A DNA stretch of 64,000 nucleotides from assembly GCA_040753015.1 (NCBI GenBank), contig JBFMHM010000006.1:20467-84466 (forward strand). The letters are read 5' to 3'. Position 1 is the first letter of the stretch. Each line of letters starts with the position of its first letter. Below the pieces are notes generated by a model, which saw only the letters and a list, made by a program, of their open reading frames with translations, was not told where the DNA came from and searched no databases. Positions 60,243-64,000 of the stretch are shown piece by piece. Origin of the DNA: Candidatus Omnitrophota bacterium (GTDB lineage: Bacteria; Omnitrophota; Gorgyraeia; Gygaellales; JBFMHM01). Made by a program: the position numbers and the translations under genes.

Positions 60243-61682
60243 ATGGGAGATATTAGAGGATTTATAAAAATTAAGAGGGCACAGGTAACATATCGCCCGG
60301 TATGCGAGCGGATAAAAGACTACAAAGAAGTTTTTGTCTTACGTCCAGAAACAACTTCACAAGAACAAGGCTCTCGCTGTATGGATTGCGGTACACCATT
60401 TTGCCACTGGGCGTGCCCGGTTGGAAATTATATTCCAGAGTGGAATGATGCTGTATTCCGTAAAAATTGGGAAAAGGCATTTAATTTACTAAGTGCAACA
60501 AACCCTTTACCGGAAATTACCGGCAGAGTTTGCCCGGCGCTTTGTGAATATTCTTGTGTACTTGGAATAAATGATGAGGCAATTACGATAAGGGAAAATG
60601 AGCTTTCCGTTGTTGAGCACGCATTCAAAAATAATTTAATTAAAGCGCATCCACCGAAGATTCGTACGAAGAAAAAAGTTGCTGTTATTGGTTCTGGGCC
60701 AGCAGGGCTTTCAGTTGCAACAACTTTAAATAAATTTGGCCATAACGTAGTAGTTTTTGAAAAAGACGATAAAGTTGGTGGAATTTTACGTTATGGCATT
60801 CCAGATTTTAAATTAGAAAAATATGTGTTAGACAGAAGAATAAAAATTTATGAAAGAGAAGGAATTAAATTTGTTACAAATACAAATGTTGGTGCAGATT
60901 ATTCAGTAAAAAAACTCTTAAAAGAATTTGATGCTGTATGTTTAGCCGGCGGAAGCCGTGTTCCTCGCGATTTTCCGCCGAAGGCTGATCCGCCTCAGGC
61001 GGAAAATATTGAAGACCGTAATTTAGATGGAATTCATTTTGCGATGGATTATTTAATCCAGTCAAATAAGCGAGTACGAGGAATTAAATTTAGTGCCGAC
61101 AAATTAATTGATGCAAAAGGCAAGCGTGTTGTTGTAATTGGCGGCGGCGATACCGGAGCAGATTGTGTTGGAACTGCAAATCGTCAAGGTGCTAGTTGTG
61201 TTGTGCAAATTGAAATTATGCCAAAACCGCCGGAATGCAGAACAGAAAATTTCCCATGGCCAAAATACCCGCTTATTTTAAAGACATCAACTAGTCATGA
61301 AGAAGGGGCCGAGCGCAAGTGGAGTATCTTGACTAAGAAATTCGTCGGCGACAAGCAGGTTAGGGCGATTTTATGTGTTAGAGTAGATTCGGCAATGAAA
61401 GAAATTAAAGGCAGCGAATTTGAAATTGAAGCAGATTTAGTAATCTTAGCGCTTGGTTTTATTGGCCCAGAGTACAACGGTTTGATTAAAGAGATAGAGA
61501 CGCATTGCAATGCGTCTCTACTAGATGCGCGCGGTAATGTAAAAACAGATAGTAATTATCAAACAAGCGTAAAAAAAGTTTTCTCCGCAGGCGATATGCA
61601 CAGAGGCCAATCTTTAGTTGTCTGGGCAATTTACGAAGGCATCGAAGCCGCAAAAAATATTAATAAATTTTTGAGGGGTTAA
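60243..61682 (+). CDS. gltD: glutamate synthase small subunit (NADPH)
   Basis: N-terminal Fe-S Cys clusters, FAD/NADPH motifs [10 protein letters not shown] and [12 protein letters not shown]. Contains two palindromic inserts. Confidence 0.9.
60975..61008. repeat. GC-rich double-hairpin element, family B, in frame within gltD
   Basis: CCGCC-gaa-GGCT-GATCCGCC-tca-GGCGG-AAAATAT, translated as [12 protein letters not shown]. Confidence 0.65.
61495..61520. repeat. perfect 26-bp palindrome, family C, in frame within gltD
   Basis: TAGAGACGCATTGCAATGCGTCTCTA, translated as IETHCNASL. Sits at a position where other GltD proteins lack ~8 aa. Confidence 0.75.
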
Positions 61683-61684
61683 TT

Positions 61685-63283
61685 ATGACAAAATATATTT
61701 TTGTAACGGGGGGTGTAATTTCAAGCCTAGGTAAAGGTATTGCTTCGGCATCAATTGGTAGAATTCTTGAAGCGCGTGGTTTAAAAATTGCTATGATTAA
61801 ACTTGACCCATACATTAATGTTGATCCTGGTACGATGAACCCTTATCAACACGGTGAGGTTTATGTTACTGATGATGGCGCAGAAACTGATTTAGACTTA
61901 GGCCACTACGAACGTTTCACAAATGCAAAAGTAGGAAAATTTTCTAATGCTACAACTGGCCAAATTTATAATTCTGTAATTCAAAAAGAGCGCCACGGAG
62001 ATTATCTTGGTAAAACGGTTCAGGTCATTCCCCATATTACCGATGAAATAAAGTTGCGTATTAAAGAGGCAAAGCAAGATAAAAATGTTGATATTGTAAT
62101 TGTTGAGATTGGCGGCACGGTAGGCGACATTGAAAGCTTGCCTTTCTTAGAGGCAATTCGCCAGTTTCTACTAGAATGCGGTAAAGAGAATGTTATATAC
62201 GTACATTTGACCTTAGTTCCTTTTATTAGAGCTGCGCAGGAATTAAAAACAAAACCAACGCAGCATAGCGTTGGTACGCTTCGTGAAATTGGTATTCAGC
62301 CAGATATTTTGTTATGCCGTACAGAACATCCATTATCCGATGATTTAAAATCAAAAATATCCTTATTCTGTAATGTTGATAAAAGCGCGGTATTCGATGC
62401 GGTTGATGTGCGTTCAATTTATGAGGTGCCATTAGAATTTAAGGCTCAAGGCTTGGATAACAAAATTCTTAAACTTCTTAGATTAAAAGGCAGGAATACG
62501 GATTTAAAACTTTGGAGAGAAATTGTCGTAAAAAGATCGCTTAACCCTAAATTTAAAACAAAAATTGCTGTTGTAGGAAAGTATATTGAACTACAAGATG
62601 CCTACAAATCAATTTATGAAGCGTTAAAACACGGTGGTATTGCAAATGATTGTGAGGTAGAGATAAAACGAATAGATGCCGAAGATGTATACAAGAATGG
62701 CGCAGAGTTTTATCTTAATGATGTAAAAGGTATTTTAGTCCCTGGAGGATTTGGTTTTCGAGGTGTAGAAGGAAAGATAAAGGCAATTGAATATGCCAGA
62801 GTTAATAAAATCCCATTTTTGGGAATTTGCCTTGGTGTGCAGACTGCGGCAATTGAATTTGCCAGGAATGTTTGCAGTTTTAAGGATGCTAATTCAACAG
62901 AATTCAATAAACACACAAACTATCCAGTGATTTGCTTAATTGAAGAACAGAAGAAAATAAAAAATCTTGGCGGCACAATGCGGCTTGGGGCCTATCCTTG
63001 CGCAATTAAAAAAAATACACTTGCGTATAAGGTTTATAAAAAAGAAATTATTTCCGAGCGCCATCGCCATCGTTATGAATTCAATAACAGATACCGTAAA
63101 ATTTTTGAAGAAAATGGTGTTATTTTTTCCGGTAATTACGCAAAATTAAATTTGGTTGAAATTTTAGAGCTTAGAAACCATCCTTATTTTATTGCAGGTC
63201 AATTCCACCCAGAATTTAAATCAAAACCAGACAGAGCTCATCCTCTTTTTTATGCATTTATTAAAGCCTCTTTAAAAATGTAA
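61685..63283 (+). CDS. pyrG: CTP synthase (glutamine-hydrolysing)
   Basis: [19 protein letters not shown]-terminus. C-terminal GATase with GICLGVQ. Confidence 0.95.
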
Positions 63284-63310
63284 AAGATACAAATATAATA
63301 TTATCAACAA

Positions 63311-63420
63311 CTTACATTCTTTTCTGTAAGCGTTTGGCGGATGTAACCGTCCGCCACTAAACACTGGCGAGACGCATCTTCATCTCGCCGAAAATCAGGC
63401 GGATGAAAGCGCTTACATTT
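63311..63420. repeat. composite GC-rich palindromic element, intergenic after pyrG
   Basis: Outer inverted repeat GTAAGCG...CGCTTAC. It encloses hairpins GGCGGA-tgtaaccg-TCCGCC and GGCGAG-acgcatcttcat-CTCGCC, plus AGGCGGAT. Shares GGCGAG/CTCGCC, GGCGG and GAGACGCA cores with families A-C. Confidence 0.6.
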
Positions 63421-63472
63421 TTCGCCCCAAAACCCTTGAAATTGGCCTATCTATAGTGCATACTTATTATAT

Positions 63473-64000
63473 ATGATGAAACGTATATTTATCTTATTAT
63501 TGGTAGGGATTTTTTGTTTTAACCACTTATGTTATGGTTTTCAAAACATAAGTACCCCAATGGCGCAAGCCTTTTCGGGGCCTACACTATTAGGCCTTGA
63601 TTTAAATGGTAGAGACGCACTGCAGTGCGTCTCTACAGGTATCCAATTCAACCTAAACATCCCCAAAGGCACTATATTGTCTTTAGGTCAACGTAAAGAT
63701 CTACAAACCAACATAAACTACTTCCTAACAGCTCTAACAGTAGACGACTCTGAATTCTGGGTTAACCTAAACCCCAACCAGCCTAACAGGCTCACAGGAA
63801 CTAATCTAGCCTACACAGACTTAGGTAAGCATCTATTATTACTAGACCTAAAACTTAAGAAAGACACAGCCTTTAGCCTATTTCCCGGACTCTCTACAGG
63901 AGCAACAGAGTATTGGACTAGAGTGTTTGCTAAAGCTAAAGCTTTAGCAAAATCAAATATCAAATATCAAAAATCAAATATACAAACTAAAAATCAAAAA
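63473..64000 (+). CDS. hypothetical secreted protein, 3'-partial (runs off window), with palindromic insert and low-complexity tail
   Basis: Signal peptide MMKRIFILLLVGIFCF. No stop before the window end. Absent from the ORF track. Confidence 0.4.
   Translation, partial: MMKRIFILLLVGIFCFNHLCYGFQNISTPMAQAFSGPTLLGLDLNGRDALQCVSTGIQFNLNIPKGTILSLGQRKDLQTNINYFLTALTVDDSEFWVNLNPNQPNRLTGTNLAYTDLGKHLLLLDLKLKKDTAFSLFPGLSTGATEYWTRVFAKAKALAKSNIKYQKSNIQTKNQK
63610..63635. repeat. perfect 26-bp palindrome, family C, in frame within the 3' secreted-protein ORF
   Basis: TAGAGACGCACTGCAGTGCGTCTCTA. Differs from the gltD copy by a compensatory T..A to C..G change that keeps the palindrome perfect. Confidence 0.75.

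Follow-up and report, generated by a model that had tools for sequence, protein, structure and literature searches.

Palindromic insertions in coding DNA of a Candidatus Omnitrophota genome are most likely double-foot REP elements

Two Short Palindromes Lie Within Genes

We analyzed a stretch of 64,000 nucleotides from a metagenome-assembled genome (MAG) of a Candidatus Omnitrophota bacterium (assembly GCA_040753015.1, contig JBFMHM010000006.1, locus-tag prefix AB1755). This stretch, hereafter called the window, has a G+C content of 34.8%. Toward its end, two short palindromes are found within open reading frames (ORFs), one in gltD and one in a hypothetical gene further downstream. Both are copies of a repetitive extragenic palindrome (REP) of the so-called double-foot type, with GT[AG]G at the 5' end and C[TC]AC at the 3' end. 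The two genes and the two copies are arranged as follows (no strand is assigned to the palindromes).

60243..61682, plus strand: gltD, glutamate synthase small subunit, host of copy 1 (E 1e-116 to the solved GltD chain 7mfm_I; 100% identical to a Candidatus Omnitrophota GltD at NCBI)
61494..61521: REP copy 1, ATAGAGACGCATTGCAATGCGTCTCTAC, with ATAG...CTAC ends, in frame in gltD, encoding I-E-T-H-C-N-A-S-L
63473..64000, plus strand, running off the window: hypothetical ORF, host of copy 2, with a predicted signal-peptide-like N-terminus (protein P0121, at NCBI "hypothetical protein, partial")
63609..63636: REP copy 2, GTAGAGACGCACTGCAGTGCGTCTCTAC, a perfect 28-bp double-foot palindrome with GTAG...CTAC ends, in frame in the hypothetical ORF

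A first-pass annotation, made from the letters alone, had described two perfect palindromes at 61495-61520 and 63610-63635 that differ only by T/A versus C/G at mirrored positions. We could confirm the palindromes and the difference between them. The length of 26 bp given there is correct for copy 1 (TAGAGACGCATTGCAATGCGTCTCTA), but not for the repeating unit, which comprises 28 nt; in copy 2 the 26-bp part (TAGAGACGCACTGCAGTGCGTCTCTA) belongs to a perfect 28-bp palindrome. GTAG is present on both strands of this 28-mer. In copy 1 the GTAG foot is intact on the minus strand only, and the plus strand reads ATAG in the 28-nt register.

By our calculation, if two of 26 positions are substituted, the second change matches the first as its mirrored complement with a probability of about 1/25 x 1/3, or 1.3%. 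The 24-nt core AGAGACGCAYTGCARTGCGTCTCT was matched twice in the window and not once in 100 dinucleotide-preserving shuffles. Folding predictions for both strands of both copies gave a 12-bp stem with a 4-nt loop, with energies from -17.2 to -21.6 kcal/mol and z-scores from -4.3 to -6.4 against shuffled sequences. For copy 1 the values were -17.2 kcal/mol on the plus strand and -17.7 kcal/mol on the minus strand (z -4.3 and -4.8), the plus strand being exceptional in that its stem has 11 bp and a short extra helix. Copy 2 reached -21.6 and -21.0 kcal/mol (z -5.4 and -6.4). Scanning the whole window against Rfam 15 revealed no family match at gathering score. Both palindromes are real and did not arise by chance.

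The Hairpin Belongs to a Family Found in More Than Ten Phyla

We scanned a one-genome-per-species collection (596 Gb) with the pattern AGAGACGCA-N6-TGCGTCTCT. At least 120 stretches (L001-L120) from more than ten phyla carried the core, compared to about nine expected by chance according to our estimate for a self-complementary pattern with 18 specified bases in 596 Gb. Among the matches listed, Bacteroidota form the majority. Chloroflexota, Planctomycetota including anammox bacteria, Ignavibacteriota, Acidobacteriota, Desulfobacterota, Gammaproteobacteria, one cyanobacterium, lineages of the candidate phyla radiation (CPR) and others are also represented, and isolate genomes are included (Flavobacterium, Sphingobacterium, Chitinophagaceae). 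The copy statistics reported here refer to 138 copies from other genomes, drawn from these listed matches.

Conservation stops exactly at GT...AC, and pairs further outside are Watson-Crick at chance level only. Since conservation ends at this point, the unit is 28 nt long. Both feet are present in 89 copies, one foot in 34 and none in 15. The flanks are unrelated from copy to copy; often the copies are set between short tandem repeats or in longer hairpins, with degenerate half-copies nearby.

Positions 10 and 15 of the 24-nt core form the base pair by which the two window copies can be told apart. Of the 138 copies, 131 have a Watson-Crick pair there, and all four pair types are used (AT 72, CG 35, TA 16, GC 8). 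A perfectly palindromic central hexamer was found in 72 copies, against about two expected by chance, and the family also contains G-T wobble variants (AGATTT). The TTGCAA centre of copy 1 recurs in L038 and L111, and the CTGCAG centre of copy 2 in L011 (Flavobacterium sp. CF108). In L016 (position 4147) the centre reads CTGCAA, which is intermediate between the centres of the two window copies, being changed on one side and not compensated on the other. The difference between T-A and C-G reflects a family-wide constraint that holds the arms complementary. This agrees with the first-pass view that selection acts on the hairpin and not on the peptide, as does the fact that the element is read in two frames.

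Perfect dyad symmetry up to the centre would also suit a double-stranded palindromic site for a dimeric protein, such as an operator or a restriction-modification site, and the arms do contain GAGACG/CGTCTC. However, the central 6 nt vary freely and yet stay complementary, unlike a fixed recognition site, and both window copies lie within coding regions. Against chance or an assembly artefact speak the zero matches in shuffled sequence and the occurrence of the sequence in more than ten phyla, isolates among them. We consider this group of explanations extremely unlikely.

Around 20% of the copies reside inside long ORFs, compared to 58% of random positions. Coding DNA is therefore avoided and not preferred. 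Intragenic copies are always read as VET....ASL or RDA....VST, while the third frame gives TAG.

The 24-nt core was also detected in 76 stretches of IMG/VR viral contigs (L121-L196), mostly with GT...AC feet and several times with two to four copies. Such contigs might represent proviruses in hosts that carry the REP, or they might act as vehicles that spread it.

Both Copies Are In-Frame Insertions

An alignment with 24 Omnitrophota-type homologues (68-75% identity) revealed five extra residues at the copy 1 site in the window GltD alone. The surplus that the first-pass annotation had suspected here is indeed an insertion, although it had been put at about eight residues.

Copy 2 can be compared within the same genome. 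P0121 has paralogues in the MAG, giving a family of at least three members (P0121, P0122, P0123; locus tags AB1755_05745, AB1755_06345, AB1755_06550; 81-87% identity). In the protein alignment, P0123 lacks exactly nine residues, NGRDALQCV (27 nt), at the copy 2 site, and P0122 has the identical segment. Read at the protein level, at which this junction was seen, P0121 and P0122 on the one side and P0123 on the other represent the filled and the empty state inside one genome, and they differ by a net 27 nt. A third copy, on another contig of the MAG, can be deduced from the P0122 peptide. Together with a REP of a second GTAG type in nadE, described below, this copy fits the population of structured mini-insertions tolerated in frame that had been proposed initially. 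All three paralogues are annotated as partial and each is located at the end of a different contig; the repeated gene probably breaks the assembly, since each paralogue is cut off on a contig of its own.

One might argue that such hairpins are not selfish but are retained because they serve the host transcripts or proteins, for example by stabilizing the mRNA, by pausing translation or by providing a useful peptide loop. In favour of this, both copies are perfect and give strong RNA folds, the G-T wobble variants hint toward pairing at the RNA level, and many REPs have been argued to act as RNA elements (PMC3733652). The host genes, however, are unrelated, the segment is absent from the 24 GltD homologues and from one paralogue in the same genome, the family is depleted in long ORFs, and the peptide changes with the frame. 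A host function is therefore very unlikely to explain the copies.

Target-site duplications had been envisaged in the first-pass annotation, but none was detected: no direct repeat beside the 28-mer exceeded expectation for k = 1-4. This is as expected for HUH/Y1 elements. A pyrimidine tends to sit before GTAG and a purine after CTAC. Three other identities or modes of insertion were rejected. A MITE, or miniature inverted-repeat transposable element, does not fit, as a fixed-length target-site duplication is missing at the 28-mer. An autonomous insertion sequence of the IS200/IS605 family does not fit either, with a unit of 28 nt, unconserved flanks and no Y1 transposase in the window. The alignment of P0121 with P0123 had raised the idea of insertion beside a pre-existing GTAGA/TCTAC motif; GTAGA is absent from the corresponding site in the DNA of three GltD homologues, which leaves this idea unsupported.

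The Hairpin Is Associated With RAYT Genes in Other Genomes

All-against-all clustering of the ORFs from the 120 loci yielded a single recurrent family, present in nine loci, to which tblastn added a fragment in L001. The family matches Pfam Y1_Tnp (IS200-like) and NCBIfam NF047646, "REP-associated tyrosine transposase" (RAYT, also termed TnpA_REP), and the motifs MPNHxH, WQ and YIxNNP are visible in the alignment. RAYT genes are hence found in 10 of the 120 blocks of 8 kb, whereas random placement would give about 0.3-0.4, assuming some 1.5 genes per genome of about 4 Mb. This corresponds to a roughly 30-fold enrichment. In L017, L043, L044, L045, L068 and L093 the transposase gene itself contains the hairpin, placed in frame between the HuH and Tyr motifs. 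It flanks the gene on both sides in L006 and upstream in L089 and L024. The RAYTs that share this REP core have only 36-55% identity among themselves. Outside this genome, the association of the element with RAYT genes is strong.

A profile search with the RAYT family returned at least 7044 relatives, several of them named "REP element-mobilizing transposase RayT" by JGI. Among the best 120 of these, 105 contain the hairpin-encoded peptide, a ranking that is biased by the presence of the peptide in the query profile. One RAYT, P0235, contains RDALQCVST, which is the peptide of window copy 2.

Three of the loci show a REP in or beside the RAYT gene with different short tandem repeats on each side (L017, 1100-1400; L045, 4900-5700; L024, 6200-6450). 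Translation of these regions gives, for instance, HDS-HDS-HDS ... VETHGRASLQ ... SNEQ-SNEQ, or DDGRGLHG in long arrays, and the repeats greatly enlarge the loop between the HuH and Tyr motifs. The RAYT of L024 (5614-6447, minus strand) has no full internal REP, yet it reads ...NCVSTT... at the insertion loop, which, judged from the peptide, looks like the remnant of a half-REP.

The Palindromes Match Double-Foot REPs of RAYT Subclass 2.4

Quentin et al. (2018, BMC Genomics 19:475; PMC6006769) describe a subclass 2.4 of TnpA_REP (group 4 of Bertels) with the motifs NH[IFV]H, WQ and YIxNNP, which occurs in Cyanobacteria, Bacteroidetes and scattered other phyla. Its partners are canonical long REPs and double-foot REPs with 5' GT[AG]G and 3' C[TC]AC, and in-frame REPs within tnpA_REP, between HuH and Y, are stated there to be unique to this subclass. 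Table S1 of that paper lists GTAGAGACGCACGGCCGTGCGTCTCTAC (ACL24330.1) and GTAGAGACGCAATGCATTGCGTCTCTAC (ABB28784.1), both 28 nt long and flagged as double foot. A central deletion in an inverted REP dimer is proposed as the origin of double-foot REPs. The same paper identifies the GT[AG]G foot as the motif recognized by the solved Escherichia coli enzyme; this RAYT binds the folded hairpin together with the GTAG foot on single-stranded DNA, and it cleaves and rejoins REP DNA.

The window elements agree with this description in several respects. The 5' GT[AG]G foot is present on both strands of copy 2 and on the minus strand of copy 1, and both copies end in CTAC. The Table S1 entries share the architecture of about 28 nt, with a 12-bp stem that includes GT[AG]G/C[TC]AC and a 4-nt loop (PMC6006769). 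The stem GTAGAGACGCA...TGCGTCTCTAC has exactly the sequence that the table gives for ACL24330.1 and ABB28784.1. Compensatory variation between copies exists both in the window (T-A versus C-G) and in the family. Furthermore, the subclass 2.4 elements described in that paper are likewise found in frame in genes, including the transposase gene, and are patchy over many phyla (PMC6006769). The differences are few. The centres are TTGCAA and CTGCAG in the window and CGGCCG and ATGCAT in Table S1, the parts of the paper that we consulted do not mention Omnitrophota as a host of subclass 2.4, and, unlike in the systems described there, a cognate RAYT was not found within the window. The pairing of a double-foot REP with an IS200-like enzyme in other genomes supports the first-pass suggestion of a hairpin-acting transposase of the IS200/IS605 TnpA kind as the cognate partner. 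Its reading of the locus was essentially correct, this guess included.

A broader relative is the GTAG REP super-family of Di Nocera, De Gregorio and Rocco (2013, BMC Genomics 14:522; PMC3733652). Its members share with the window elements the GTAG tag, complementary stem changes and G-T pairs in stems that have 5-13 bp there, and the association with RAYTs. In-frame intragenic copies have been catalogued as well and form a minority (Opitutus terrae, Rickettsia conorii; PMC3733652). There, however, GTAG is an unpaired tail at one end, whereas the window elements pair GTAG with CTAC. The supplementary text of Di Nocera et al. does not contain the window sequence.

REPs and bacterial interspersed mosaic elements (BIMEs) of E. 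coli, which belong to RAYT subclass 2.2, also combine a hairpin with a GTAG foot that is recognized in single-stranded form by a monomeric HUH/Y1 enzyme. The element is non-autonomous and of high copy number there, and the transposase gene is single-copy. Unlike the window elements, E. coli REPs have a single foot and a greater length, their palindromes are imperfect and contain bulges, and they occur essentially outside genes and only in enterobacteria. Rickettsia palindromic elements (RPE) resemble the window elements as short structured repeats tolerated in frame in protein-coding genes, but RPE-1 consists of longer palindromic insertions. The small dispersed repeats (SDRs) of cyanobacteria, which Elhai et al. 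reportedly described in 2008, are 21-27 nt long, carry compensatory changes and lie among heptamer repeats. They are likewise short, structured and tolerated in frame in genes. A literature search with the palindrome sequence as a string returned primers only.

Probable Spread in Trans by a RAYT and Its Alternatives

We think it highly probable that the two palindromes are 28-nt double-foot REP copies, the partner of a subclass 2.4 RAYT, that were spread in trans and survived in permissive loops. The unit has a stem that starts with GTAG on either strand, GTAGAGACGCA-N6-TGCGTCTCTAC, and represents the GTAGAGACG type of REP. The observations behind this are the hairpin with its covariation across the family, the in-frame insertion state, the lack of a target-site duplication and the link to RAYTs in other genomes. 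Subclass 2.4 RAYTs are, according to the literature, the partners of double-foot REPs and act as IS200-like HUH/Y1 single-strand DNA endonucleases (PMC6006769). Such an enzyme would have spread REP copies in this genome in trans, on single-stranded DNA and without target-site duplication. Copies would have been kept where they fell in surface loops or linkers that tolerate additional residues, provided that they were read in one of the two frames free of stops and that the net length was a multiple of three. The survivors would now be seen as extra stretches of peptide in GltD, in NadE and in the hypothetical protein.

Several points weigh against this reading. Neither a RAYT nor any other Y1 transposase gene is present within the 64-kb window. 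None of the best 120 of at least 7044 RAYT homologues is labelled Omnitrophota, which is uninformative as to absence, and a cognate enzyme in this genome is putative. For RAYTs in general, transposition of REPs has been proposed, while cleavage and rejoining by the E. coli enzyme has been demonstrated (PMC3733652, PMC6006769). There are only two copies in the window and one more deduced in P0122, and the latter probably reflects gene duplication and not a separate insertion. Among 197 loci we found no clean filled/empty pair at the nucleotide level, only identical duplicates or diverged repeats. Likewise, no double-foot REP was present in 49 kb from three other Omnitrophota genomes. Because these three loci lack it, the REP family seems to be confined to particular lineages, in agreement with the patchy occurrence described for subclass 2.4. 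Finally, the central dinucleotide is self-complementary in 116 of the 138 copies (25% expected). Since this self-complementary centre lies in the unpaired loop, hairpin stability alone cannot account for the perfect symmetry. A copy mechanism that rebuilds one arm from the other is an alternative explanation for the symmetric centre.

Such a mechanism leads to the idea of a very small mobile hairpin that moves without a RAYT, by template switching, by fold-back synthesis at replication forks or by another enzyme, with RAYT genes serving merely as favoured landing sites. Palindromy to the very centre fits the regeneration of one arm from the other. Furthermore, the elements often sit between short tandem repeats (L017, L024, L045), and RAYT genes are absent from the window and from all 76 viral-contig stretches. 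The SDRs of Elhai et al. reportedly have the same setting between short repeats and resemble such a hairpin. On the contrary, the co-location with RAYTs in 10 of 120 blocks includes classical flanking (both sides in L006, upstream in L089 and L024) and not just internal copies. One REP core is kept with RAYTs that have diverged to 36-55% identity, and the GT[AG]G foot is the recognition motif of the solved E. coli enzyme according to PMC6006769. Movement without a RAYT is therefore unlikely in our view. A bolder version, to which we give an equally small chance, regards the 28-nt hairpin as a minimal replicator. Its symmetry would be rebuilt at each copying with one arm templating the other, and it would cross phyla, possibly via viral DNA, and colonize ORFs even in genomes without a RAYT of their own, as would then hold for this MAG. 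If so, the "compensatory" changes would be a by-product of copying and not of selection on structure.

The palindromes belong to a documented REP type, and the host phylum is what is new. Short GC-rich "extra loops" in otherwise conserved proteins of this AT-rich candidate-phylum genome are hereby explained as REP insertions and not as adaptive features or assembly errors. For annotation, peptides such as VET....ASL or RDA....VST can be used to flag REPs. The host range of subclass 2.4-type REPs now includes Omnitrophota, and a single REP core is kept nearly unchanged over more than ten phyla and also in viral contigs. The understanding of REP/RAYT systems as such is unchanged by this finding.

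Other Hairpin Elements in the Window

Further hairpin elements were found at the following positions (strand given for the first only).

54221..54246, plus strand: canonical single-foot GTAG REP in nadE, GTAGGGGCGGCCCCAAGTGGCCGCCC, that is GTAG + GGGCGGCC + CCAAGT + GGCCGCCC, in frame as V-G-A-A-P-S-G-R-P
60975-61008 (gltD), 57682-57702 (gltB), 60194-60214 (gltB-gltD spacer) and, outside the window, L199 10725-10761: hairpins of the type TCCGCC-N3/4-GGCGGA
33340-33383 and 58174-58217 (gltB): near-identical pair of nested-hairpin elements of about 45 nt, TTCCGCCAAAGGCGAGACCTCGCC....GGCGGGAAAAAA
63330-63410 (spacer between pyrG and the hypothetical ORF): cluster of three or four GC-rich hairpins, with GGCGGATGTAACCGTCCGCC, GGCGAGACGCATCTTCATCTCGCC and an outer pairing of the GTAAGCGCTTTC/GAAAGCGCTTAC type

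The nadE element belongs to the same REP super-family as the palindromes but has a different stem. It lies in a variable inter-domain linker, where solved NadE chains are four to six residues shorter, and it resembles the subclass 2.4 REPs GTAGGGGCGG... in Table S1 of PMC6006769.

The TCCGCC/GGCGGA hairpins form a second family that often occurs as a dimer sharing GGCGGATCCGCC and has no GTAG foot. In GltD this hairpin adds ten residues. The same insertion is found at the same codon in the distant Omnitrophota GltD proteins P0004 (in L199) and P0023, and P0034 has a longer form of it. The closest GltD homologue, P0003 (L200), lacks it, and its DNA represents an empty site. The shared codon position points to recurrent site-specific insertion or to an old polymorphism.

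One of the elements of about 45 nt encodes SAKGETSPQSGGKK within GltB, and a related GC-rich composite is found at the 5' end of gltB (55526-55586). The hairpin cluster in the pyrG-ORF spacer gave no Rfam match, and one of its hairpins shares GAGACGCA with the REP stem.

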